A stretch of DNA of 64,000 nucleotides from Escherichia coli. Its GTDB lineage: Bacteria > Pseudomonadota > Gammaproteobacteria > Enterobacterales > Enterobacteriaceae. The notes under the pieces were generated by a model that had not been told where the DNA came from, searched no databases, and saw nothing but the letters and a program-made list of their open reading frames with translations. The DNA lies in the NCBI RefSeq assembly GCF_003334305.1, contig NZ_QOWS01000007.1. One strand, 5' to 3'. Within the stretch, counting starts at the first letter, position 1. Every line of letters begins with the position of its first letter. Shown in pieces: positions 6,950-20,563 of this stretch. The translations under genes and the position numbers were made by a program.

Positions 6950-8161
<1,212 letters not shown>

Positions 8162-8257
8162 CCAGGATAATTAGCGAATATCTCAATGCCTGGGGCGTGG
8201 CGAGGTGCAAGAGTGTGTATTACGTTTAAATCACATTATCTTGCAAAGGGATTGGTT

Positions 8258-8680
8258 ATGAACACACTACGTTATTTTGATTTTGGAGCTGCCCGCCCCG
8301 TTTTGTTATTAATTGCCCGTATCGCCGTGGTCTTAATTTTCATTATTTTTGGTTTTCCCAAAATGATGGGCTTTGACGGTACGGTCCAATATATGGCCTC
8401 GTTGGGCGCGCCAATGCCGATGCTGGCAGCGATTATTGCGGTAGTTATGGAAGTGCCCGCCGCGATATTAATCGTGCTTGGCTTTTTCACCCGTCCGCTG
8501 GCGGTGCTGTTTATTTTCTACACGCTGGGTACGGCGGTGATTGGTCACCATTACTGGGATATGACCGGCGATGCGGTTGGGCCAAATATGATTAATTTCT
8601 GGAAGAATGTCAGTATCGCTGGCGCATTCCTGCTGCTGGCAATTACCGGGCCGGGGGCAATTTCTCTCGATCGGCGTTAG
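8258..8680 (+). CDS. yphA: DoxX-family inner membrane protein
   Basis: 140-aa hydrophobic protein from MNTLRYF; the track ORF carries a 24-codon upstream extension. Confidence 0.75.
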
Positions 8681-8684
8681 GAAA

Positions 8685-8719
8685 GATGCCGGATGCGGCG
8701 TGAACGCCTTATCCGGCAT
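8685..8719. repeat. REP (repetitive extragenic palindrome) element
   Basis: gatgccggatgcggcgtgaacgccttatccggcat, canonical REP sequence between convergent yphA and yphB. Confidence 0.8.
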
Positions 8720-8727
8720 TTAATAAA

Positions 8728-9600
8728 TTACAGCCACTCTACCCGCAACGACATCTCTGAAGTTGTTGATTCCCCTGGTGCTAGCGCAATGAGATCACCC
8801 CCTTCCGGGCGATGATGATCATCCGGCGCATGGCTCATCGGTTCCAGACAGAAGAAATCAAACGCATATCCTTTATCAAACGCAGGGTCGGAAACAAAGA
8901 TGAAATAACACGGTGCAGGTGGCGTCGTTTCCATGATGATGGCATAACCTTCCTGCGGCTGCTCGATGCGGGCCTGACCATTCCATCCGGCAAAACCATT
9001 GTTCACCCACTGGCGCGGCAACGGCGCGGGCTGGTTAAAATCCAGTTCCTGCGGTAGCTGCTCGCAAAACTCACCCGCCAGCCACTGCTCCCGCTCCAGC
9101 CAGTAACCGCTCGCCTGTGCCTGAATCCGCGTTTGCGGCGACAACGGAAAATAAGGATGCCAGCCGGTACCAAATGGCAGCGTCTCTGCCCCTTGATTGG
9201 TGACAGAGAGCGTCACCGTCAGCGTATCCGCCGTTAAATGAAACGCCTGACTTACCCGATAGTGATAGACACCGCTGCGATGTTCATACACCAGACACAA
9301 ACTATCATCGCTGTGCGAGACACATTGCCACTCGCCCAGCCAGCCATCGCCGTGTAGATAGTGCGCATCCCACTCAACATTCGGTTGCAGTTGATACTCA
9401 CGCCCCTGCCAGACAAAACGATTGCCGCTCACCCGGTTTGCAAATGGCACCAGCGGAAAACATGAGGCATCGGTTGCCACACCGCTTTTTTTACCAGGAC
9501 GTAAGAGCGGCGTCGTATCGCGCCAGAAGCCTTCGATTACGCCGCCCTGGTCAGAAACGTCCAGCTTTAGCGACCCGTGGGATAAGGTATAGATGGTCAT
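8728..9600 (-). CDS. yphB: Aldose 1-epimerase (mutarotase)-like protein
   Basis: 290 aa; last gene of the minus-strand yphGFEDCB cluster. Confidence 0.8.
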   Translation of the reverse strand: MTIYTLSHGSLKLDVSDQGGVIEGFWRDTTPLLRPGKKSGVATDASCFPLVPFANRVSGNRFVWQGREYQLQPNVEWDAHYLHGDGWLGEWQCVSHSDDSLCLVYEHRSGVYHYRVSQAFHLTADTLTVTLSVTNQGAETLPFGTGWHPYFPLSPQTRIQAQASGYWLEREQWLAGEFCEQLPQELDFNQPAPLPRQWVNNGFAGWNGQARIEQPQEGYAIIMETTPPAPCYFIFVSDPAFDKGYAFDFFCLEPMSHAPDDHHRPEGGDLIALAPGESTTSEMSLRVEWL

Positions 9601-9611
9601 CCGCTAACTCC

Positions 9612-10673
9612 TTAATCCGGGAAGTTAATCACAACTTTCCCGCATTTGCCGCTCGCCATCAGCGCATAGGCATCACCTGCCTGTTCCAGCGAGAAGCGAT
9701 GGGTAATGGCGTTACGCGGCCACAGTTTCCAGTCCGTCAGATCATGGGCGCATTTTTCCATATGGAACAGACTGGTCACCCAGGAGCCGATAATCCGCCG
9801 TTGATGGTGCATCAGATCGGCGCTGACCTCGAACTCCACTTTTCCGGTTTCTCCGATGTAAACCACCCGTCCCCAGTCAGCGGTGGATCGCAGTGCCAGC
9901 AAGCGACCTGCGGCATTACCAGAACAATCGAGCGCAACATCCGCGCCACCGTGGGTGAGTTCGGCGATAATCTGCGGCAGACCTTCGGTGGTTGCTAAAT
10001 AGCCGTGATCCATCACCCCTAACTGTTTTGCCATCGCCAGACGTTCCGGCAGCATATCAACGCCGATGATCCGTTTTGCACCGCGACCTTTCGCCAGCAT
10101 CATCGCCATCATGCCGACTGGCCCCAGACCGACCACCAGCACGTTATCACTGCCGGAAACTTCGCCGCGCAAAATCCCTTCATAGGCCGTGCCAACGCCG
10201 CAACTGATAAACGCACCATCTTCGTAGCTCAGCGCATCCGGCAGGAGGATCAGATCTTTTTCTTCCGCCAGCAGATATTCGGCATGACCGCCGTCACGCT
10301 GCCAGCCGTAAGCCGCTTTTCCTTTGCCAGTACAAGAGATAGGAAAGCCGCGGCGGCAGTTCGGGCAAAAACCACAGCCAGAAATGTGATACACCAGCAC
10401 GCGATCACCCTCTTTAAAATGGCGACAGCCTTGCCCCATCGCCACAATCTGCCCGCACGGTTCATGACCGTTGATAAATCCCTGGTATAACGGTTTATCG
10501 GGTGCCGCCGCCGTGGCACGGTGTTGATGATAGATATAGTGGACATCGCTTCCGCAAATCCCGGAGGATTTCATTTTGATCAGTACCTGGTTAATCCCCG
10601 GCGTCGGCACCGCAACTTCCCGCAGATCGACGGTTGAATTTCCTGGTAAATAAGCTGCCAGCATCGTTTTCAT
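9612..10673 (-). CDS. yphC: Zn-dependent alcohol/polyol dehydrogenase family protein
   Basis: Catalytic-Zn motif GHEPCG, structural-Zn cluster CGFCPNC, NAD fold VGLGPVG; start at MKTMLAAY (track ORF is 11 codons longer). Confidence 0.8.
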   Translation of the reverse strand: MKTMLAAYLPGNSTVDLREVAVPTPGINQVLIKMKSSGICGSDVHYIYHQHRATAAAPDKPLYQGFINGHEPCGQIVAMGQGCRHFKEGDRVLVYHISGCGFCPNCRRGFPISCTGKGKAAYGWQRDGGHAEYLLAEEKDLILLPDALSYEDGAFISCGVGTAYEGILRGEVSGSDNVLVVGLGPVGMMAMMLAKGRGAKRIIGVDMLPERLAMAKQLGVMDHGYLATTEGLPQIIAELTHGGADVALDCSGNAAGRLLALRSTADWGRVVYIGETGKVEFEVSADLMHHQRRIIGSWVTSLFHMEKCAHDLTDWKLWPRNAITHRFSLEQAGDAYALMASGKCGKVVINFPD

Positions 10674-10738
10674 AAATCCCTCATTAACAATACGATTAAT
10701 TTTCATCCCTGCCGCACCCGCGCCAGGGGCGTTAAGGT

Positions 10739-11737
10739 TTAGCGTTTCGCTTTACTGCTTCGCTGGGTCAGCAAGATATTCGCCAGCACCGCCACCACGA
10801 TGATGACGCCGCGTACCACCTGCTGGAAAAAGGAGTTAATACCGAGCAGCACCAGACCGTTACCGATTAGCGTAATCACCAGCACACCAAGCAATGTACC
10901 GAACAGGGAACCGCGACCGCCGGAAAGTGCCGTACCGCCGACCACGACCGCGGCGATGACGTCAAACTCCAGACCGTTTGCGGCACCTGCGTTACCAGAA
11001 CCGAGGCGCGCCGCCAACAAAATGCCGGTCACCGCCGCTAATAATCCCGAAAGGGTAAAGATAAGAATGCGCACCCGACGAACGTTGATGCCGCACAACT
11101 GCGCCGCCGTAGCATTACCGCCAACGGCAAAAACCGAGCGCCCGAAGGCGGTTTTGCGGCTGATGAACACAAACAGCGCAAACAACACAATCATGATCAG
11201 CGCGGATACCGGCACACCGAGAAATTGTCCGCCCAGCCAGTCCAGCACCTCGTTTTCGTCAATCGGCACTGGCAGTGCGTTCGTCATAAACAGCCCCATT
11301 CCGCGCAGGGCGCTCCACAGCCCCAGTGTGGCAACGAAACTTGGTACGTTAAACACGCCGCGCAGCACCCCGGCCAGCGTTCCCATCAGCGCGCCTAACA
11401 GCAACACCAGCAGACACGCCACCGCCAGCGGAACTTCAAATTGCAGCAAAAATGCCAGGCACACCGAGACAAAAGCCACCATCGGCCCAACGCTGACATC
11501 AATTTCACCGGAGATAATAATCAGCGTCATCGCCCAGGCGGCAATCCCAATGGTGGCGGCATCGCGCAGCACGTTCATCTGGTTATTCAATGAGATAAAG
11601 CCAGGCGCGTTCAGGGAGAAGACCAGATAAAGAATGGCGATTACCACCAGCAAACCGATCTCATTAATATGGCGACTGACAAATTGTTTGAGCGAGACGC
11701 TCTTGCCCTGCGGCAATGATAATGACGAAGCAGACAT
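10739..11737 (-). CDS. yphD: ABC transporter permease (sugar/RbsC-like)
   Basis: 332-aa polytopic ORF; the 276-aa plus-strand track ORF inside it is an antisense shadow. Confidence 0.85.
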   Translation of the reverse strand: MSASSLSLPQGKSVSLKQFVSRHINEIGLLVVIAILYLVFSLNAPGFISLNNQMNVLRDAATIGIAAWAMTLIIISGEIDVSVGPMVAFVSVCLAFLLQFEVPLAVACLLVLLLGALMGTLAGVLRGVFNVPSFVATLGLWSALRGMGLFMTNALPVPIDENEVLDWLGGQFLGVPVSALIMIVLFALFVFISRKTAFGRSVFAVGGNATAAQLCGINVRRVRILIFTLSGLLAAVTGILLAARLGSGNAGAANGLEFDVIAAVVVGGTALSGGRGSLFGTLLGVLVITLIGNGLVLLGINSFFQQVVRGVIIVVAVLANILLTQRSSKAKR

Positions 11738-11761
11738 CTTCAGGTTCCTCGGTAAAATTCA

Positions 11762-13273
11762 TCAGTGCACAGACAGAATGGCGGACATCAGCTCATCCAC
11801 ATTGACCGGCGAGTGAAACTCCTGCGAGAACGTACCGTGCTGTAACAACAGGATGCGGTCGCACACCAGCGGCAACTCCTCCACTTCACTGGAGATAAAC
11901 ACCACGCTTTTTCCTTCGGCAGCCAGCTCACGGACAATACGGTAAATCTGCTGTTTGGCTTCGATATCGACGCCGCGCGTTGGCTCGTCGAGCAACAAAA
12001 TCTGGCTGGCGGCATAGACCCAACGACCGATCACCACTTTTTGCTGATTGCCGCCAGAAAGCGTGCCGATGGGCGTTTCGCTACTGGCGGCCTTGACCGT
12101 CATCCGCTGCATCACCTCTTCGGTCAGGCGGCGGATGGTGGACCATTGCAGTACGCCGTTGGCGCTGATTTTTTGCCGATTGGTCAGCACTGTATTTTCG
12201 TCAACGCCCAACCAGGGAATGATCCCCGCTTCTTTGCGGTTTTCTGGCGTATAGCCAATGCCGCGTTTCAGCATGTCGCCGTAATCGGGGCGCGTGATTT
12301 TCTCGCCGTTGATAACAATTTCGCCCTGTTCATACTCCTCCAGCCCAACAATCGCCTTCAGCAATTCACTGCGCCCTGCCCCCAGCAGGCCAGCAATGCC
12401 AAGCACTTCGCCGCGACGTAACGTAAAGCTGATATCCTCCAGCTTGGGCTTATGGCGTAATGCACGGACTTCCAGCACGGCCTGATCCACAATTTCCTGA
12501 GGGGCTACCGGCGCAATATCAACGTGATCACGCCCTAGCATTAGCGACACAATATGATGCGTGGAGGTGTTTTCGAGCATCACATCGCCCGCCACCTGAC
12601 CATCGCGCATAACGGTGGCACAGGAGGCAATGCGGCGGATTTCTTCCATCCGGTGGCTGACATAAATCACCGCCACGCCCAGTGCCGACATCTTTTTCAC
12701 CGCACTGATCACCAGTTCAACTTCTGCACTGGCAAGCGAGCTGGTGGGTTCATCAAGAATGACCACGCGCGGCTCGCCCTTCATCACCCGTGCAATTTCC
12801 ACCAGTTGCTTTTGCGCCGGGCTTAGCGTTGAAACAAGTTGTTCAGGACTAACGTCAACGCCCAGCGCCTGTAAGCAACGTTGGGCATCCTGCGCCATTT
12901 GCAGGTAATCAATCATGCCGTTGCGGCGAGGCCATTGACCAAGGCAGAGGTTTTCTGCCACCGTCAGCCCTTCCACCAGACTTAATTCCTGATAAACCGC
13001 ACGAACCCCCAGTTCAGCGGCACGGCGAGTCAACGTAGCTTCGTCACCTTCCAGTCGCGTCTCGCCAATCCAGATATCACCGCTATCCGGGCGTTCGCTG
13101 CCGGTAAGCATTCGAATGAGAGTCGATTTGCCCGCGCCGTTTTTACCTAACAGCGCACGAACTTCGCCTTTATTGAGCGTGAAGTTAACGTTATCCAGCG
13201 CAACGACGCCGGGGTAACGCTTATTTCCTGCCACCACTTTTGCTACCGGGACTGCCTCTGTTGCCGTGAACAT
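11762..13273 (-). CDS. yphE: ABC transporter ATP-binding protein, tandem ATPase domains (sugar type)
   Basis: 503 aa; two Walker A motifs (GKNGAGKST, GLLGAGRSE) and ABC signatures (LSPAQKQ, LSGGNQQK). Confidence 0.9.
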   Translation of the reverse strand: MFTATEAVPVAKVVAGNKRYPGVVALDNVNFTLNKGEVRALLGKNGAGKSTLIRMLTGSERPDSGDIWIGETRLEGDEATLTRRAAELGVRAVYQELSLVEGLTVAENLCLGQWPRRNGMIDYLQMAQDAQRCLQALGVDVSPEQLVSTLSPAQKQLVEIARVMKGEPRVVILDEPTSSLASAEVELVISAVKKMSALGVAVIYVSHRMEEIRRIASCATVMRDGQVAGDVMLENTSTHHIVSLMLGRDHVDIAPVAPQEIVDQAVLEVRALRHKPKLEDISFTLRRGEVLGIAGLLGAGRSELLKAIVGLEEYEQGEIVINGEKITRPDYGDMLKRGIGYTPENRKEAGIIPWLGVDENTVLTNRQKISANGVLQWSTIRRLTEEVMQRMTVKAASSETPIGTLSGGNQQKVVIGRWVYAASQILLLDEPTRGVDIEAKQQIYRIVRELAAEGKSVVFISSEVEELPLVCDRILLLQHGTFSQEFHSPVNVDELMSAILSVH

Positions 13274-13295
13274 AGGGACCTCTGCGAATCAGCGA

Positions 13296-14279
13296 TTAGG
13301 GCAGACCATCAACGTGCGTTGCCAGCCACTGTTTACCATCTTCCGTTTTGGTATAGAGATCGATTGGCACCTGAATCACTTTTTCACCGTCGGCTTGTTT
13401 ATTGATAACCTTCAATGTTTGCGCGAAAACAGCATTGCCCATTTTCTTACCGGAAATATCCACTACCGCTTTCAGCACCTGATTGTTTTCCAGCTCCTGA
13501 GCAATTTCGGTTGTCATATCCGAACCGAAAACAGCAATTTTTCCGGCCTGATTTTGATTACGTACCGCTTTTACCGCGCCGAGTGTCGCACCGCCCGACT
13601 CCCCCATAATGGCGTTGAGATCCGGCGTGGAGATAATCAGTTTTTCACCAACGGAAATCGCTTTATCTAAAACAGTCCCTTCCTGATTAGCGACAATTTG
13701 CGCGCCGGGAACGCGGGATTTTAATACTTCTTCAAATCCTTTACGTCGCTGCACACAAACTTCAAAGGCTTCGCAATTGATGACGGCAATTTTCGGCTGG
13801 TCAATTTTATTGGCAATAAAATAATCGGCGGCAGCGTTACCCAGTTTTTTACCAAATTCCAGTGGATCGCCGACCAGATACGCCGAGACATATTTATCGA
13901 CACCCTTTTGATTAATACAGGTGTTGTAGCAAATCACCGGAATACCCGCTTCACTGGCGCGACGAACGGTACGGCTACTGCCATTTTCAGACACTGCCGA
14001 TAAAATAATGGCATCGACATTACGCGCCACGAGGGTATCAACAAAGGTACTTTCTTTCGAAATATCACCCTGGGCGTTAGTTTCAATTAACTGTACCTGT
14101 ACTGAAGAATCTTTTGCCGCATCCTGAACGCCCTGACGCACTCCAGCGTAATATCCCTGGGTATCAAGGTATATTGCACCAATGGTCATCTCTTTATCCG
14201 CAGCCCTGGCAAATAGTGCGCTACCTAATAGCGTACCCATTAATAATAGATTACGGGTTGTTCTCATTTTTTTAGGCAT
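13296..14279 (-). CDS. yphF: Periplasmic substrate-binding protein of the ABC transporter
   Basis: 327 aa; N-terminal signal peptide MPKKMRTTRNLLLMGTLLGSALFARA; AGGAGG ribosome-binding site upstream. Confidence 0.85.
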   Translation of the reverse strand: MPKKMRTTRNLLLMGTLLGSALFARAADKEMTIGAIYLDTQGYYAGVRQGVQDAAKDSSVQVQLIETNAQGDISKESTFVDTLVARNVDAIILSAVSENGSSRTVRRASEAGIPVICYNTCINQKGVDKYVSAYLVGDPLEFGKKLGNAAADYFIANKIDQPKIAVINCEAFEVCVQRRKGFEEVLKSRVPGAQIVANQEGTVLDKAISVGEKLIISTPDLNAIMGESGGATLGAVKAVRNQNQAGKIAVFGSDMTTEIAQELENNQVLKAVVDISGKKMGNAVFAQTLKVINKQADGEKVIQVPIDLYTKTEDGKQWLATHVDGLP

Positions 14280-14333
14280 AGTGCCTCCTGTAGGGTTTTT
14301 ATTAACAACGGCTTATTCTAATTATTTTGTGAT

Positions 14334-14354
14334 GAGCGGCAGCGCGTGCCGCTC
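14334..14354 (-). other. GC-rich intercistronic stem-loop between yphG and yphF (8-bp stem, 5-nt loop, no U-tract)
   Basis: gagcggca-gcgcg-tgccgctc perfect inverted repeat in the 96-nt yphG-yphF spacer. Confidence 0.5.
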
Positions 14355-14375
14355 AAATATTACAGTTAATAGGGT

Positions 14376-17300
14376 TTAGTGAACGTAGTTAAAAATAAAA
14401 GGCATCACGGTGGTGAATAATGCCGCTTTCGGCCAGGCCGGATTAATCGCCGTCAATTCAGCGCGAGCAGATTCATATTGCGCAACCTCCCCGAGTCCCG
14501 CGGACGCCAGCATCGCCACCATCAGGCATTTTTCTTTATGCTGCTGTTGTAAATCGCCATACAGCGACAACAGGTCAGGTTGTGAAACAGCAAAGAAATC
14601 CGCCTCAATACTGGTTTTCGCCATCTCTTGCGCCCACTGTTTCATTTCACTAAACAGTTGCTGTGCGGTTTGCTGTTCACCCAGCAGTCGCAGCGCCATT
14701 CCTTGCCAGAAGAGATAATCAACCGGCTGATCGTTGTAATAACTGTGGATGTTAATGGTGCGATCGCCGGTCGCCGCCAGACGTAAACAACGCATCGCTT
14801 CAGTTTCATCGCCCTGCGCGTTGGCGCATATCGCCTGCCAGAACCAGATGTCGTTATCAGTTTGCCCCGGTAAACGGCCTTCGCTTAAATTCTCCGGATA
14901 ATGCAGCGCGGCATGAAGCAGTTCGCTGGCCTGCTGCGGCTCTCTGGCATCAAGATGCTGCCAGGCGCGTAATAACTGGTTGAGGATAAACTGACTGGTG
15001 ACCTTCCCTTCCCCGCCTTCCCACGGGTGGAATTTGCGCGTGGCGAGAATGTCCGCCGCTTTGTCTGCCTGACCCGTGAGATGCCACAAATTGAGCAACT
15101 CTGCTGTCATGTCGTCGCGTTTCAGCGCAATTTCCAGATTATTTTCCAGACGCGCCAGTCGTTTCTCCGGTGTGGCTCCGCTTAACTTATCAAGCAAATC
15201 CCGTTCGAAAAGCAGACGTGCATCCTGCGGCGCAAGCTGATAAGCATTATCAAGATAACGCGCGGCCAGCTCATAATCGTGTTGCTTATTCCACGCATGG
15301 ATCGCTAACCCGCGCCAGCCGTCGGCAAACTCCGGCGACATCTCTACGCAACGTTGCCATAAGGTAATGGCTTTGTTGTAGCTACGCTTGTTGTAGTAGA
15401 AGCAGGCCAGTAAATGACGGGCAAACCAGCACTCTTCAATACTCTCCAGCGCCGCCACTTCTTCCAGCGTATTCGGGAAACGGACAAACTGCGGGAAGAC
15501 ATCAATGGCTTTTGCGACCAGTTCGCCGCGTTCGGCTTTCGGCAATAAACTCGCCTGCAGGTAAAGCGGCAGCGTGCGCTGGCAGTCCAGTGCGTTCAGC
15601 ATCTCTGCCGCCAGGGTGGGCATTCCCCAGTTAATCAGTTGCCCGGCGGTCATCAGAGCGTTAACGTCGCGTCCCTGACACAGACCGCGCCACTGCGCGA
15701 GAGCTGATTCGCTACGACCATCGAACCAGTTCAGCCACCACAGAGTGGCGTTCAGCGGATAATCGCGCAGCAGTTTCTCGCGCTGCACACGCGCGTTGTC
15801 CTGACGACCACTTAACACCAGCAGCAGATTATGCAGGCAAAGCACTTCCTGATTGGTTGGGCAGGCGCGAAGACTTTGTTGGCAAAAATCCAGACCAGCG
15901 TCGAAGTTACCATTACGCGCCGCCAGTCGTGCCAGGCCATAATAGCCACCGGCTTTGCTGTTGCCGCTCCAGACCGCACGCCAGAAATCCTCTTCGGCTT
16001 GTTGATATTGTCCCTGACGTTCGTAAGCACTGGCGCGAATCAAACTGGCCTGTCCGCACTGCGGATTTTTGTTCAGCGCATGTGCGCGTTTCAGCGCCTG
16101 AGTGGCATACGCCACCGCTTGCGGGAAATCGGCGCGGTTATATTCCAGCATCGCCAGCGCCAGGTTACAGCGGTAATCCAGCGGATCCAGCACCACGCCG
16201 CGCAGGTAGTAATCGAACGGTGAACGGCTGGCGTGATGATATTGCTCCAGATGCTGACCGATAAACCAGGCTTCATCTGTACTGGTAATGTCTTGTGCTG
16301 CCAGTGGCGCTTTGGCGACGTCCGGCAACGGCAACTCTTGCGGCTGATGTTCCTGATAACTCAGTACAATATTGCCGTCGGCATCGGAGAGCTCAATGGT
16401 CAGCCTTTCAGGATTGATACCGTGCAACACGCCCTGGATGGCGGTCGCAGGCATCAGTGCCACGGCATCATCAAGTAACGCGTTGCATTTGCCGATTTCG
16501 CGGATCGCCAGGCGGTATCCGTTCAACGGAGAGATGGCATACAGCCCCCACTCAATCCCCCGCTTACTACGCTGGAGTTTTATCACCGCATCGCGGGAGG
16601 CATTTTGCACCATGCCCAAAGAATGATAAGGCAGGAAATACTGCTCAAAACGCATCTCTTCGTAAGCATCAAGCCAGGTAAAATCGGGCTGGTTATCGGC
16701 AAAAATACCGGTCATCAGTTCGATATACGGGCCGTTATTGTCGGTCAGACTCTTATCCCACGCCTGGCCAAATTCACTGTGTCCCCAACTCCACTGTTTT
16801 TTACCTGGCGCGATATGGTGGTTGGCAACGTGCAGCAAACCGCCATCTTCATCGTGACACCACGCGCCGACAAAATCGTACTGCGATTTTTCGGCCATAT
16901 ATGAGGTTGGAACAGGCACATTTTTATAGCGAGAAATGTCCACTCCGGCGGAGTAGTCCACTTTGTAGTAAGTGCCGGTGGCGATGGGGAAAGCGGAGAC
17001 GGCCCGTTTGCCGTGATCAAACACCGCAGTCACATCCGGTGGGAAAACGCTCTGATGCCCTTCCCCCCCTTTCACTGCCGGGTTGGCCCACCACAAGAAA
17101 TGACGCGGCGTGGCGTTACCGTTATAGACGCGGCTGGCGATTTCCAGCGCCGCCCGTTCAGGACGCAGTGTGAAACCTGTCATCACCTGTAAACCGTGCA
17201 TCGGCTCCGTTTCGCCGACCCACACCGTCTGTGCGCCGTCTTCATGGGCTTCGAGGGTGAAATCAACGGGCATAAAGGTGGTCGGGCGATGGTGTTGCGG

Positions 17301-17657
17301 CCAGTTAAACTCAATCCCGCCAGAGATCCACGGTCCCAGCAGCCCCACCAGCGCAGGTTTAATGACTTCATTGTGATAGACAAAATCGCGTTGTTTCACT
17401 TTATCCCATGCGCGATGCACACGACCGCCCAGTTCCGGCAGGATCATCACTTTGATGTAGTCGTTTTCCAGCCACACCGCCTGCCAGGATTTCAGGGTTT
17501 TCTGCTCGCTCAGCGTATCGGTCACGCCGTAGGGATAAACCGCGCCGGACGATCCCTGATAAACGCGATTTTCCAAGAACATGGGATGTATATCCTGCGG
17601 CCCGGTTTCATAGGTCGGGATCTCAACGCGCTCTTGCCACACTTTTACTGGAGTCAT
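14376..17657 (-). CDS. yphG: Large (~1,093 aa) protein of unknown function with TPR-like helical repeats in the C-terminal half
   Basis: Continuous 1,124-codon ORF; start assigned to MTPVKVWQER (ATG at 17657); heads the yph operon. Confidence 0.75.
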   Translation of the reverse strand: MTPVKVWQERVEIPTYETGPQDIHPMFLENRVYQGSSGAVYPYGVTDTLSEQKTLKSWQAVWLENDYIKVMILPELGGRVHRAWDKVKQRDFVYHNEVIKPALVGLLGPWISGGIEFNWPQHHRPTTFMPVDFTLEAHEDGAQTVWVGETEPMHGLQVMTGFTLRPERAALEIASRVYNGNATPRHFLWWANPAVKGGEGHQSVFPPDVTAVFDHGKRAVSAFPIATGTYYKVDYSAGVDISRYKNVPVPTSYMAEKSQYDFVGAWCHDEDGGLLHVANHHIAPGKKQWSWGHSEFGQAWDKSLTDNNGPYIELMTGIFADNQPDFTWLDAYEEMRFEQYFLPYHSLGMVQNASRDAVIKLQRSKRGIEWGLYAISPLNGYRLAIREIGKCNALLDDAVALMPATAIQGVLHGINPERLTIELSDADGNIVLSYQEHQPQELPLPDVAKAPLAAQDITSTDEAWFIGQHLEQYHHASRSPFDYYLRGVVLDPLDYRCNLALAMLEYNRADFPQAVAYATQALKRAHALNKNPQCGQASLIRASAYERQGQYQQAEEDFWRAVWSGNSKAGGYYGLARLAARNGNFDAGLDFCQQSLRACPTNQEVLCLHNLLLVLSGRQDNARVQREKLLRDYPLNATLWWLNWFDGRSESALAQWRGLCQGRDVNALMTAGQLINWGMPTLAAEMLNALDCQRTLPLYLQASLLPKAERGELVAKAIDVFPQFVRFPNTLEEVAALESIEECWFARHLLACFYYNKRSYNKAITLWQRCVEMSPEFADGWRGLAIHAWNKQHDYELAARYLDNAYQLAPQDARLLFERDLLDKLSGATPEKRLARLENNLEIALKRDDMTAELLNLWHLTGQADKAADILATRKFHPWEGGEGKVTSQFILNQLLRAWQHLDAREPQQASELLHAALHYPENLSEGRLPGQTDNDIWFWQAICANAQGDETEAMRCLRLAATGDRTINIHSYYNDQPVDYLFWQGMALRLLGEQQTAQQLFSEMKQWAQEMAKTSIEADFFAVSQPDLLSLYGDLQQQHKEKCLMVAMLASAGLGEVAQYESARAELTAINPAWPKAALFTTVMPFIFNYVH

Positions 17658-17774
17658 GGTGCCCTCAATATTAACAAGACATACTGAATTAAAAGATTTG
17701 TGGCAGTGTATTGAACAATCTGGCAATGTTTTCGCGGAATAATCACGCAATTAACTAAACAAGGTTTAGTGAAG

Positions 17775-18968
17775 ATGAGAGCCTGCATTAACAATCAACA
17801 GATTCGCCACCATAACAAATGCGTGATTCTGGAACTGCTGTACCGGCAAAAGCGCGCCAATAAATCAACGCTGGCCCGGCTGGCGCAAATTTCGATTCCG
17901 GCAGTCAGTAATATTTTGCAGGAACTGGAAAGCGAAAAACGGGTGGTGAATATCGACGATGAAAGCCAGACGCGCGGGCATAGTAGCGGTACATGGCTGA
18001 TTGCGCCGGAAGGTGACTGGACGCTGTGCCTGAACGTGACGCCCACCAGTATTGAGTGTCAGGTTGCTAATGCTTGTTTAAGTCCGAAAGGCGAGTTTGA
18101 GTATTTACAGATTGATGCACCGACGCCGCAGGCGCTGCTGTCCGAAATCGAAAAATGCTGGCATCGCCACCGTAAATTGTGGCCGGACCGCACCATCAAT
18201 CTGGCGCTGGCAATCCACGGTCAGGTTGATCCGGTGACCGGCGTGTCGCAAACCATGCCGCAAGCGCCGTGGACAACGCCGGTGGAGGTGAAATATCTGC
18301 TGGAAGAGAAGCTCGGCATTCGGGTGATGGTCGATAATGACTGCGTGATGCTGGCGCTGGCGGAGAAATGGCAAAATAATTCGCAGGAACGGGATTTCTG
18401 CGTGATCAACGTTGATTACGGCATTGGCTCGTCGTTCGTGATTAACGAGCAAATTTATCGCGGCAGTTTGTATGGTAGCGGACAGATTGGTCACACCATC
18501 GTTAATCCGGATGGCGTCGTCTGCGACTGTGGACGTTACGGCTGCCTGGAAACCGTCGCCTCGTTAAGTGCTTTAAAAAAACAGGCGCGGGTATGGCTAA
18601 AATCACAACCGGTTAATACTCAGCTTGATCCTGAAAAACTGACAACCGCGCAGTTAATCGCTGCCTGGCAGAGTGGAGAACCGTGGATCACCAGCTGGGT
18701 TGACCGCAGTGCCAATGCCATTGGTTTGAGTCTGTATAACTTCCTCAACATCCTCAATATTAATCAGATTTGGTTGTACGGTCGCAGTTGTGCCTTTGGT
18801 GAGAACTGGCTTAATACTATTATTCGCCAGACAGGATTTAACCCGTTCGACCGCGACGAAGGACCGAGCGTGAAAGCGACGCAAATTGGCTTCGGGCAAT
18901 TAAGCCGCGCACAACAGGTGCTGGGAATTGGCTATTTGTATGTTGAGGCGCAGTTACGACAGATTTGA
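17775..18968 (+). CDS. yphH: ROK-family (NagC/Mlc-like) transcriptional regulator
   Basis: N-terminal HTH (…STLARLAQISIPAVSNILQEL) and ROK zinc motif CDCGRYGCLE; divergent from yphG; track start is a GTG two codons upstream. Confidence 0.8.
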   Translation: MRACINNQQIRHHNKCVILELLYRQKRANKSTLARLAQISIPAVSNILQELESEKRVVNIDDESQTRGHSSGTWLIAPEGDWTLCLNVTPTSIECQVANACLSPKGEFEYLQIDAPTPQALLSEIEKCWHRHRKLWPDRTINLALAIHGQVDPVTGVSQTMPQAPWTTPVEVKYLLEEKLGIRVMVDNDCVMLALAEKWQNNSQERDFCVINVDYGIGSSFVINEQIYRGSLYGSGQIGHTIVNPDGVVCDCGRYGCLETVASLSALKKQARVWLKSQPVNTQLDPEKLTTAQLIAAWQSGEPWITSWVDRSANAIGLSLYNFLNILNINQIWLYGRSCAFGENWLNTIIRQTGFNPFDRDEGPSVKATQIGFGQLSRAQQVLGIGYLYVEAQLRQI

Positions 18969-19031
18969 TGGCGCGATAACGTAGAAAGGCTTCCCGAAGG
19001 AAGCCTTTTTTCAACAGATTAACCGTTTCGC

Positions 19032-20285
19032 TTATGCGTAAACCGGGTAACGTGCGCAGATGTCGAGAACTTTACCTTTGATGCGCTCGATAACGGCTTC
19101 ATCATTGATGCTGTCCAGCACGTCACACATCCAGCCAGCCAGTTCTTTCGCTTCTGCTTCTTTGAAGCCGCGACGCGTAATTGCCGGAGTACCCACGCGA
19201 ATACCGGAGGTCACAAACGGGCTCTTCGGATCGTTCGGTACGCTGTTTTTGTTGACGGTGATGTTAGCACGGCCCAGAGCGGCGTCTGCTTCTTTACCGG
19301 TCAGGTTTTTATCGACCAGATCAACCAGGAACAGATGGTTATCAGTACCGCCGGAAACCACTTTGTAGCCGCGTTCCAGGAACACTTCTACCATCGCTTT
19401 AGCGTTTTTAGCGACCTGCTGCTGGTAAGTTTTGAACTCAGGCTCCATCGCTTCTTTCAGAGCAACCGCTTTACCGGCGATTACGTGCATCAACGGACCG
19501 CCCTGACCACCAGGGAAAACGGCAGAGTTCAGTTTTTTGTACAGCTCTTCGCTACCACCTTTCGCCAGGATCAGGCCGCCGCGCGGACCCGCCAGGGTTT
19601 TGTGAGTGGTGGTAGTAACAACGTGAGCATGAGGAACCGGGTTCGGGTAGACGCCAGCAGCAACCAGGCCCGCAACGTGCGCCATATCAACGAACAGGTA
19701 AGCACCGATGCTGTCAGCGATTTCACGCATTTTCGCCCAGTCCACCACGCCGGAATATGCAGAGAAACCACCGATAATCATTTTCGGCTTGTGTTCTTTG
19801 GCTTGTTTTTCCAGATCGGCGTAGTCGATATGACCGGTAGCATCGATACCGTAAGGAACGATGTTGTACAGTTTACCGGAGAAGTTAACCGGAGAACCGT
19901 GAGTCAGGTGACCGCCATGCGCCAGGTTCATACCCAGAACGGTATCACCTGGTTCCAGCAGCGCGGTGTAGACCGCAAAGTTAGCCTGGGAGCCGGAGTG
20001 CGGCTGGACGTTAGCGTAGTCAGCGCCGAACAGTTCTTTCGCACGATCGATCGCCAGTTGTTCAACGATATCAACATACTCGCAACCGCCGTAGTAGCGT
20101 TTGCCCGGATAACCTTCAGCATATTTGTTGGTCAGCTGAGAACCCTGCGCCTGCATTACGCGCGGGCTGGTGTAGTTTTCGGAGGCGATCAGTTCGATGT
20201 GCTCTTCCTGACGTACTTTTTCCTGCTCCATAGCCTGCCACAGTTCGGCATCATAATCGGCAATGTTCATTTCACGCTTTAACAT
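19032..20285 (-). CDS. glyA: Serine hydroxymethyltransferase
   Basis: PLP-lysine signature [16 protein letters not shown]; 417 aa from [12 protein letters not shown]. Confidence 0.95.
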
Positions 20286-20403
20286 CCGCATCTCCTGACT
20301 CAGCTAACAATAAAATTTTTGGCCTTTATAGGCGGTCCTGTTGGACAACGGCGAACAGTATAACCGAATCATTGTGCGATAACAGGTCTTGACAAAGGAA
20401 TTT

Positions 20404-20419
20404 ACGCAAACGATTACCT
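20404..20419. promoter_or_regulatory. Candidate PurR box in the glyA-hmp divergent control region
   Basis: acgcaaacgattacct resembles the pur operator consensus ACGCAAACGTTTGCGT (left half perfect). Confidence 0.35.
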
Positions 20420-20563
20420 TCAGGCTACGCAAGGCTTTGGAGAATAAAGAGCTTGCAACCGGAAACGGATTTCTTTTCAGGTTTGTGATGCAAATTTTTC
20501 ACTTCATCACATTCTTTCTGAAAAACACCAAAGAACCATTTACATTGCAGGGCTATTTTTTAT

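Follow-up and report, generated by a model that had tools for sequence, protein, structure and literature searches.

The yph locus occupies positions 8,728 to 18,968 of a 64,000-nucleotide stretch of Escherichia coli DNA (contig NZ_QOWS01000007.1 of RefSeq assembly GCF_003334305.1), which is called the window below. It comprises six co-directional genes, yphB to yphG, and the divergent regulator gene yphH. Our analysis suggests that the locus is a YphH-controlled uptake and first-step module for a neutral, monosaccharide-size sugar of the galactose series, most likely D-galactose or a close analogue, and we assign this reading a probability of roughly 0.45. The galactose series is favoured because two independent lines of evidence converge on it, namely the genes that accompany the transporter block in other bacteria and the genes that accompany YphG. 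A substrate of monosaccharide size is expected because the associated transporters are CUT2-type ATP-binding cassette (ABC) systems or sugar porters. The seven genes, with coordinates, spacers and intergenic length defined by RefSeq start codons, are as follows.

8728-9600, minus strand: yphB, 290 amino acids, aldose 1-epimerase (mutarotase) family
9612-10706, minus strand: yphC, 364 amino acids, Zn-dependent medium-chain dehydrogenase
10739-11737, minus strand: yphD, 332 amino acids, CUT2-type ABC permease
11762-13273, minus strand: yphE, 503 amino acids, tandem-domain ABC ATPase
13296-14279, minus strand: yphF, 327 amino acids, periplasmic CUT2 (monosaccharide-type) binding protein
14376-17657, minus strand: yphG, 1,093 amino acids, mutarotase-fold domain, small beta domain and TPR solenoid
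17775-18968, plus strand: yphH, 397 amino acids, ROK-family transcription factor, divergent from yphG

An initial annotation of the window had described a divergently regulated sugar-utilisation module composed of these parts, and its seven open reading frames (ORFs) are found where it had placed them, with gene content and motifs that agree. It had also characterised the spacers as very short. This applies to the first four, which measure 11, 32, 24 and 22 bp from yphB toward yphG, but not to the 96-bp yphG-yphF spacer, which carries conserved elements. The divergent region between yphG and yphH spans 117 bp rather than the 111 bp originally reported. A longer yphG frame beginning at a TTG codon at position 17750 was considered and rejected, as homologues align from the ATG at 17657. 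Furthermore, the module had been regarded as a complete transport and catabolism system. Genes for a kinase, a dehydratase, a lactonase and an aldolase are absent from the locus, and therefore yph can only feed a pathway that is encoded elsewhere.

The first line of evidence comes from three loci, reached through YphF homologues, in which the transporter block occurs outside of any YphG context. In Aquitalea, the F-E-D-C-B block is closely related to that of E. coli (YphC 83%, YphD 72%, YphF 69%, YphE 62% and YphB 56% identical) and YphG is absent. The block adjoins genes for a galactonate dehydratase (NF010624, 649 bits versus a cut-off of 311), a 2-dehydro-3-deoxy-6-phosphogalactonate (KDPGal) aldolase (NF006600, 285 versus 207), an SGL-family lactonase and a short-chain dehydrogenase/reductase (SDR). 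In Agrobacterium and Rhizobium, F-E-D-B follows a divergent GntR regulator gene and a GMC oxidoreductase fills the YphC slot. Next come a galactonate dehydratase, which scores 729 bits in Agrobacterium, and the SDR that is also present in Aquitalea. YphF is 57-69% identical to the binding proteins of these galactonate-dehydratase-linked clusters. Together, these neighbours supply the genes expected for oxidative D-galactose breakdown by the De Ley-Doudoroff route. The presence of this gene set beside the block suggests that the natural role of YphC is the oxidation of an aldose and that YphB is the mutarotase that supplies its anomer. Aldose oxidation by YphC is also indicated by the GMC oxidoreductase that takes its slot in Rhizobiaceae and by the match of YphC orthologues to the Pfam family Glu_dehyd_C.

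The E. coli locus is not itself a member of this class. De Ley-Doudoroff clusters of alpha- and beta-proteobacteria encode a galactose dehydrogenase, a lactonase, DgoD, DgoK and DgoA, and yph resembles them in the F-E-D-C-B synteny that it shares with Aquitalea at 56-83% identity. It differs from them in lacking a dehydratase, lactonase, kinase or aldolase of its own, in carrying YphG and YphH in addition, and in that the activity of YphC is predicted only. Because the galactonate dehydratase and the KDPGal aldolase are absent from the locus, a test for membership failed, and yph may instead feed that pathway from outside.

Under the galactose-series reading, YphF would bind the sugar in the periplasm, and YphD and YphE would import it. 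In the cytoplasm, YphB and YphG would then act on the anomeric centre, with YphG supplying the free sugar either as the ring form or anomer required by the next enzyme or after removal of a small substituent. YphC, as a predicted NAD(P)-dependent Zn dehydrogenase, would subsequently oxidise the sugar, most plausibly at C1, to give the aldonolactone and then the aldonate. Presumably, the aldonate enters the D-galactonate (dgo) pathway, which is encoded elsewhere in E. coli.

The second line of evidence comes from the genomic contexts of YphG. A scan of species-representative genomes yielded 80 YphG loci from Enterobacterales, Aeromonas, Photobacterium, Bacteroidota, Firmicutes and Bifidobacterium. 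Neighbours were counted over 84 loci within five genes of the YphG homologue, with protein clusters named by NCBIfam and Pfam. The distributions are as follows.

XylE-like sugar porter: Bacteroidota 30/33, gamma-proteobacteria 12/22, Firmicutes 0/27
CUT2 ABC genes: Bacteroidota 1/33, gamma-proteobacteria 9/22, Firmicutes 8/27
AraC regulator: Bacteroidota 18/33, gamma-proteobacteria 1/22, Firmicutes 19/27
ROK regulator: Bacteroidota 0/33, gamma-proteobacteria 19/22 (divergent from the YphG gene), Firmicutes 0/27
Galactosidase-type hydrolase: Bacteroidota 21/33, gamma-proteobacteria 3/22, Firmicutes 15/27

The context of YphG is thus dominated by galactose-releasing glycosidases, whose classes are GH2 proteins related to exo-beta-1,4-galactosidase, GH35, GH36 melibiase and GH97 alpha-galactosidase. 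The GH2 protein is the commonest partner, and it carries a signal peptide in Bacteroidota and none in Firmicutes, Bifidobacterium and Enterobacter. Also in line with galactose, the Merdimonas gene for YphG is the first of an operon in which a small cupin gene, a galK-like kinase gene, galE and galT follow. In Enterobacter sp. ENT03, an operon divergent from yphG-F-E-D-C-B encodes a ROK protein, a GPH symporter, a GH36 alpha-galactosidase, a ChiP-like porin and a cytoplasmic GH2. In some Clostridia (Ruminococcaceae and Lachnospiraceae), YphG instead has sugar-acid genes as neighbours, either a Zn-dehydrogenase with UxaB and UxaA or an SDR accompanied by an IlvD-type dehydratase and by an RraA-like aldolase. 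We read as the common thread of these contexts a cytoplasmic step that would come just before an enzyme, be it a kinase or a dehydrogenase, acts on C1 of the free aldose.

Two features of these neighbourhoods were recorded separately. The oligosaccharide operon of ENT03 (locus L017, 595-8442) has a counterpart in Citrobacter sp. FP75 (locus L021, 490-8513) with the same symporter, GH36 and porin, followed by an unrelated 974-amino-acid protein without a family match in the place of the GH2. In two Lachnospiraceae loci, a 137-amino-acid cupin with a weak match to Ureidogly_lyase is encoded directly 3′ of the YphG homologue (L031, 4013-4426; L072, 5233-5646). It precedes the SDR, IlvD-type dehydratase and RraA-like aldolase genes in one of these loci and the galK-like, galE and galT genes in the other.

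YphG is the signature protein of the locus. The initial annotation had labelled it TPR-like. The repeats are indeed present, but the N-terminal mutarotase-fold domain had been missed and the protein consequently undersold. Pfam recognises DUF5107 and TPR repeats and nothing else. A full-length model built from a 70-sequence alignment (pLDDT 95, pTM 0.93) places beta structure at residues 5-435 and helical repeats at 460-1092, and it supersedes a single-sequence AlphaFold prediction of the N-terminus that was unusable (pLDDT 30). The resulting layout is a mutarotase-fold domain at residues ~1-345, a small beta domain at ~357-435 and a TPR solenoid at ~460-1092. The best structural neighbours of the predicted N-terminal domain are true mutarotases, in keeping with this fold. 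Residues H123, H215 and E313 are invariant, and they occur in the right order and with plausible spacing for the His/His/Glu set of mutarotases, which makes them candidate catalytic residues. They belong to a larger set of invariant or near-invariant polar residues (E116, H122, H123, R124, N192, D208, H215, K286, K287, D306 and E313), to which the TPR part adds a conserved R782 and an FHPWEGGEG loop.

Conservation of YphG extends across phyla, with the N-terminal 440 amino acids of the E. coli protein being 53-58% identical to those of Bacteroidota or Firmicutes. The family is large: clustering at 50% identity leaves 3,870 representatives with E <= 1e-3, and the majority are ~1,100 amino acids long and alignable over their full length. 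A signal peptide was never seen on its members, indicating that the protein is cytoplasmic. Its structural relatives in AFDB50 are all named 'DUF5107 domain-containing protein'. The only solved relative is PDB 5CD6 (BDI_1685 of Parabacteroides distasonis), a structural-genomics 'TPR-domain containing protein' that differs from YphG in having 580 amino acids, half the length, and is 21% identical; its function is equally uncharacterised. This distant branch keeps E116, H123, N192, H215, K287 and E313. From its predicted structure and its conserved residues, we read YphG as an enzyme whose active site would bind the anomeric end of a sugar.

The chemistry of such an enzyme was considered in several forms. 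A lactonase, which would stand in for the SGL lactonase that Aquitalea has and E. coli lacks, was rejected as the main reading, as most YphG loci contain no dehydrogenase. A role as the sole alpha/beta mutarotase for galactose was downgraded, given that a second mutarotase usually lies beside YphG. Some kind of mutarotase (YphB-type, GalM or DUF4432) is encoded within five genes in 27 of the 84 loci. The fact that an ordinary mutarotase accompanies YphG in three non-orthologous forms is what would be expected if YphG were a new cytoplasmic glycoside hydrolase, or another bond-cleaving enzyme, that frees galactose from a small galactoside or conjugate. The liberated anomer would then be equilibrated by YphB, much as GalM acts after LacZ and YihR after YihQ. 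Candidate substrates include a glyceryl-, methyl- or inositol-galactoside or a disaccharide, and both methyl- and glyceryl-galactosides are known ligands of another CUT2 protein, MglB. In addition, YphG is a large protein with many invariant carboxylates, and the layout typical of Firmicutes, an AraC regulator with YphG alone, or with GH2 or GH35, is that of glycosidase genes. However, the closest structures are true mutarotases rather than glycosidase or lyase domains, and YphG matches no Pfam GH family and no described catalytic family of glycoside hydrolases or polysaccharide lyases. Both transporter types are classically monosaccharide systems, and the signal peptide on the adjacent GH2 of Bacteroidota implies that free monosaccharide is what is imported. 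We therefore regard cleavage by YphG as rather unlikely, although it is the main rival to the galactose-series reading above.

The TPR part, with ~630 residues of genuine repeats, is a protein-interaction module, and a regulator gene lies directly beside YphG or an MFS-YphG pair in 58 of the 84 loci. These features would fit a non-enzymatic sugar sensor or scaffold in the cytoplasm, holding the sugar in its mutarotase-like domain and docking through its repeats on the transporter, on YphH or AraC, or on pathway enzymes. Such specific docking is difficult to reconcile with the fact that the regulator family (ROK or AraC) and the transporter class (MFS or ABC) change while YphG stays constant. 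Moreover, the beta domain is strongly conserved across phyla with invariant His, Glu, Asp and Lys residues, and the conserved TPR loop looks like part of an active site. A purely sensory or structural role thus appears improbable.

If YphG is an enzyme, it might found a new class in which a mutarotase-fold catalytic domain is completed by a loop from the TPR solenoid. Such an enzyme would cleave a small galactoside or conjugate, or would interconvert ring forms, and in E. coli it would be coupled to an oxidative, De Ley-Doudoroff-type entry into dgo through YphC as a galactose-series 1-dehydrogenase. We offer this as a tentative proposal that is more doubtful than probable. Were it true, galactose-rich glycans would be used through a cytoplasmic step, that of YphG, which has so far been overlooked and is common to gut and soil Bacteroidota, Firmicutes, Actinobacteria and Enterobacterales. 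The real puzzle of the locus is YphG and not the transporter: its family spans thousands of sequence clusters, has no characterised member, and is encoded beside galactosidase and porter genes in polysaccharide degraders of gut and soil. Once its reaction is defined, a common gene of gut Bacteroidota and Lachnospiraceae could be annotated, and a missing step in the use of galactan, arabinogalactan or raffinose-family sugars could be revealed.

The remaining components were compared with characterised families. YphFED has the features of a CUT2 importer, including two nucleotide-binding domains in one polypeptide, a permease of the BPD_transp_2 family and a binding protein of the Peripla_BP_4 family. 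The signal peptide that had been noted before on the binding protein is consistent with the N-terminus of YphF. The Pfam domains were seen on the orthologues. Two Walker A motifs had been ascribed to YphE, of which the first is canonical (GKNGAGKS, residue 43) but the second is degenerate (GLLGAGRS, residue 295); Walker B motifs are at 170 and 425 and LSGG is at 405. CUT2 family matches of the three proteins include AraG, RbsA, RbsC, AraH, AlsB and MglB. None of the three proteins reaches an NCBIfam cut-off of the characterised systems for ribose, arabinose, xylose, allose, galactose (Mgl), galactofuranose (Ytf) or AI-2. The best matches of YphE are AraG (456 versus 689 bits), XylG and AlsA, and those of YphD are RbsC (227 versus 398) and AraH, all below cut-off, whereas YphF scores 65 of the required 335 bits for AlsB, 59 of 420 for MglB and 43 of 510 for YtfQ. 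The best PDB match of YphF is 5HSG (E 1e-24), and its homologues match Peripla_BP_4.

Among known systems, the ribose operon rbsDACBKR of E. coli is similar in that its CUT2 importer, made up of binding protein, tandem ATPase and permease, is paired with a cytoplasmic enzyme whose sole effect is on the ring or anomeric form of the imported sugar, ahead of an anomer-specific enzyme. RbsA, RbsB and RbsC are among the best matches for YphE, YphF and YphD, respectively, and the rbs equivalog cut-offs are not reached. Unlike rbs, the yph locus has no kinase, and its regulator is of the ROK rather than the LacI type. RbsD also has a different fold from the mutarotase-fold proteins of yph.

YphC carries the hallmarks of a Zn-dependent medium-chain dehydrogenase. 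These include GICGSD as well as the GHEPCG (residue 80) and CGFCPNC (residue 111) motifs that had been reported earlier and are both present, with the ligands of the catalytic zinc (Cys, and His-Glu of GHE) and with C111, C114, C117 and C125 (CGFCPNC...C, 111-125) forming the structural-zinc site. No specific family is reached, with 171 of 380 bits for Tdh, 168 of 450 for IolM, 107 of 550 for GatD, 113 of 376 for LgoD/YjjN and 89 of 469 for IdnD. The families and PDB entries that match it best are dehydrogenases of threonine, xylitol, sorbitol and scyllo-inosose. This similarity raises the prospect of a polyol substrate (galactitol or D-altritol, for instance) or of another non-aldose, such as an inositol-like compound, that YphC would first convert as a secondary-alcohol dehydrogenase before YphB and YphG act on the resulting keto- or aldo-sugar. 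CUT2 polyol systems with Zn-dehydrogenases exist, for example the D-altritol/galactitol system of Agrobacterium. However, YphC is absent from most YphG loci and so is not the entry step of the core. Likewise, the replacement of YphC by a GMC oxidoreductase beside galactonate dehydratase in Rhizobiaceae fits oxidation of an aldose at C1, and mutarotases act on free reducing sugars. A polyol substrate therefore seems to us a poor prospect.

By its sequence, YphB is predicted to be an ordinary mutarotase. It is identical to the structural-genomics structure PDB 3NRE, and its motifs LHGDGW (H83), GWHPYF (H148) and FCLEP (E253) align with those of YoxA from Bacillus subtilis. The three residues are invariant in 15 orthologues, as expected for the aldose 1-epimerase family. 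GalM and the yihQ/yihR pair for sulfoquinovose offer precedents for a dedicated mutarotase that acts after a glycosidase or after uptake, and YphB keeps the corresponding His/His/Glu motifs, although it scores 41 bits against the YihR-type model, for which the cut-off is 251. GalM shares its fold with the N-terminal domain of YphG and replaces YphB next to YphG in Bacteroidota. YphG differs from both GalM and YphB in its 630-residue TPR extension and in showing no sequence-profile similarity to them.

Several observations count against a galactose-series assignment with YphB, YphG and YphC acting at the anomeric centre. For D-galactose, E. coli is already equipped with GalP, MglBAC and the Leloir pathway, and a second route needs a rationale, possibly a different analogue, ring form or niche. 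The link between the transporter block and galactonate genes is drawn from three genomes, and this dehydratase family can serve 6-modified galactonates such as sulfogalactonate, as described in a 2025 paper on sulfofucose (PMC12421959). The sugar-acid neighbours in Ruminococcaceae and Lachnospiraceae fit other aldoses too. Neighbourhoods were delineated from our own crude ORF calls, and the GH2 clusters were named from sub-equivalog matches. The closest sequence relatives of YphC are dehydrogenases for threonine, polyols and inosose, and archaeal glucose and galactose dehydrogenases are not among its best 60 PDB matches. For YphG, hhalign alignments with YphB and GalM gave probabilities of 0.1-0.2%, corresponding to no profile homology, and none of 35 family members matched Pfam Aldose_epim. 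The relationship of YphG to mutarotases is therefore one of structure only, and the correspondence of its candidate catalytic residues is drawn from their order and spacing. Finally, plain alpha/beta mutarotation by YphG would be redundant with the adjacent second mutarotase.

The initial annotation had presented the locus as one classic unit. Instead, it is a mosaic of two modules, each of which occurs separately in other bacteria. In Aeromonas, Serratia, Lelliottia and a Sodalis-like contig, a divergent ROK gene is followed by the genes for YphG, an MFS sugar porter and an Aldose_epim protein, without an ABC transporter and without a Zn-dehydrogenase. The Lelliottia cassette occupies the same chromosomal position, adjoining glyA and yphA. 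In one Serratia quinivorans strain (locus L093), both transporters are kept, in the order ROK (divergent), yphG, MFS, yphF, yphE, yphD, yphC and yphB, whereas E. coli-type loci have no MFS porter. The existence of the MFS-type loci together with the S. quinivorans intermediate identifies the E. coli locus as a mosaic. In Enterobacterales, Aeromonas and Photobacterium, the conserved core is a ROK regulator, YphG, a sugar transporter and YphB. By this reading, an ancestral cassette of ROK, YphG, MFS porter and YphB acquired the yphFEDC block, which was inserted after the porter gene and ahead of the epimerase gene, and later lost its porter. The base composition of yphF, with a G+C content of 45.9% and a third-codon-position G+C content (GC3) of 42.7%, compared to 54-56% and 58-67% for neighbouring genes, suggests a separate or more recent origin of the binding-protein gene inside the operon.

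Comparative analysis of the noncoding DNA revealed conserved elements that might mediate control by YphH. The following elements were found.

17743-17773: candidate operator of YphH, a conserved block of 31 bp (TCACGCAATTAACTAAACAAGGTTTAGTGAA) that contains the core palindrome ACTAAAC-N3-GTTTAGT and stops 1 nt short of the ATG of yphH
17705-17710, minus strand: candidate -10 hexamer TAnACT (TACACT) of the yphG operon, in near-invariant alignment columns
17671-17688, minus strand: second, weaker operator-like box TTCAGTATGTCTTGTTAA beside the yphG ribosome-binding site, conserved in the 12-genus alignment; putative operator
14357-14382, minus strand: third operator-like box GTTCACTAAACCCTATTAACTGTAAT, overlapping the yphG stop codon; pattern match with 3 mismatches
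14333-14355: perfect 9-bp inverted repeat TGAGCGGCA-N5-TGCCGCTCA in the yphG-yphF spacer, following the third box

The 31-bp block is near-invariant from E. coli to Aeromonas in the alignment of 12 genera, and the box pattern derived from it has seven matches in the window at <=3 mismatches versus 1.33 expected by chance. Adjoining the palindrome and outside of it, the segment ATTGCGTGA (minus-strand reading, 17743-17752) is invariant or nearly so in all 12 genera. The weaker box sits downstream of the conserved TAnACT element. E. albertii, two Enterobacter species and Budvicia have the third box in the same position, and its sequence is near-identical to that of the box that precedes the ROK gene in Lelliottia. 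The inverted repeat that follows it is kept in E. albertii and two Enterobacter loci, whereas both elements are absent from Enterobacter ENT03, where the spacer is 30 bp. From their sequences, the three boxes are candidate YphH operators, and the inverted repeat might form an RNA hairpin or an attenuating terminator. The placement of a box and a potential hairpin before yphF suggests that yphFEDCB is under separate control. A generic scan for sigma-70 promoters and terminators returned nothing above the shuffled expectation and did not pick up the TAnACT element, and an Rfam search over 8000-20500 detected no RNA family.

YphH exhibits the features of the ROK repressor family and is a predicted repressor. 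It has the ROK zinc motif CDCGRYGC at residue 250 together with H240, and the kinase DxGxT motif is absent. The best matches are NagC and Mlc, at 109-112 bits versus cut-offs of 530-650, and the Aeromonas orthologue shows a ROK match and a weak MarR-type match. YphH shares with NagC and Mlc the N-terminal DNA-binding region, the ROK domain and the zinc motif, and also the arrangement of a regulator gene divergent from its target operon with palindromic boxes that overlap the 5′ regions. To our knowledge, the ACTAAAC-N3-GTTTAGT box differs from the NagC/Mlc consensus. A conserved GR motif in the linker, which NagC, Mlc and nearly all other ROK clusters possess, is missing from the YphH group (PMC4288165).

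Over 12 kb, the yph stretch matches the chromosome of E. coli strain A7 at 100% identity, and RefSeq annotates yphA, yphB-G, yphH and glyA there, with the hca operon upstream. Each of the 5,426 complete E. coli genomes contains a match to the locus, in every case on the chromosome, and in 5,371 of them the match covers >=80% of the query at >=90% identity. This distribution, the seven intact frames with retained catalytic motifs, and the conservation of the operator-like boxes all speak against the possibility that yph is a cryptic remnant in E. coli that is never induced or is decaying. Furthermore, YphF protein was detected, and was raised 3.0- to 4.6-fold, in a proteome study of levoglucosan (PMC8753852). 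The idea of a remnant draws on the failure to find a phenotype or inducer in the literature searched, on the anomalous composition of yphF, and on occasional shortening or splitting of YphG. Considering both sides, we judge it very improbable. The increase is not taken to indicate that YphF binds levoglucosan. It was accompanied by MalE, XylF, MglA, UgpB and YtfQ (PMC8753852), and the joint rise with other binding proteins is read as general catabolite derepression.

The shortened forms of YphG are of several kinds. In one E. coli strain (SCPM-O-B-8794; locus L007, 2286-5657), yphG is split into ORFs of 841 and 244 amino acids. Two clusters of shorter proteins contain 1,109 members of 900 amino acids (P0009) and 1,402 members of 692 amino acids (P0033), compared to 18,305 members in the full-length cluster. 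These forms may reflect lineage-specific decay or merely the ends of contigs.

As the initial annotation acknowledged, yph is an already catalogued y-gene cluster and no new discovery in itself. New are the mosaic origin, the galactonate-linked FEDCB block and the operator-like boxes. The ligand and pathway had been described as unassigned. In support of this, no paper that assigns a yph substrate was found in the literature searched, where 'yphC' matches mostly concern a B. subtilis GTPase and a Helicobacter pylori multilocus sequence typing gene. Likewise, the full-text literature searched yielded no functional work on DUF5107, a term that does not occur in it, or on the yph genes of E. coli. 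The RefSeq product names are generic, and YphH was described as uncharacterised in papers from 2014 and 2022 (PMC4288165 and PMC9308461). In the homology search that the annotation had called for, none of the seven proteins reached any NCBIfam equivalog cut-off. The substrate, however, is less open than had been implied, as two lines lead to the galactose series. Thus, for one of the remaining E. coli sugar clusters without an assigned function, present in every complete genome examined, the analysis narrows the substrate to a short list of galacto-configured aldoses and small galactosides, with a proposed route from YphB and YphC via galactonate to dgo.

Two observations concern other parts of the window. 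The gene yphA (8258-8680, plus strand) encodes a DoxX-family protein and lies between hcaD and yphB. It is not part of the yph sugar module, because it stays beside glyA in Lelliottia. Its product shows a sub-threshold match to the HvfX family of Cu-binding ribosomally synthesized and post-translationally modified peptide (RiPP) maturation proteins, at ~40 bits versus a cut-off of 80. The second is a match to the yph box pattern at 45182-45200, the palindrome TACTAAACACTGTTTGGT, which was found through the TAAAC/GTTTA half-sites that it shares with the yph box and was rejected as unrelated to yph. It is located 16 nt upstream of nadB (ORF 45216-46838, 540 amino acids, L-aspartate oxidase, 1,052 bits) and is probably a NadR box.

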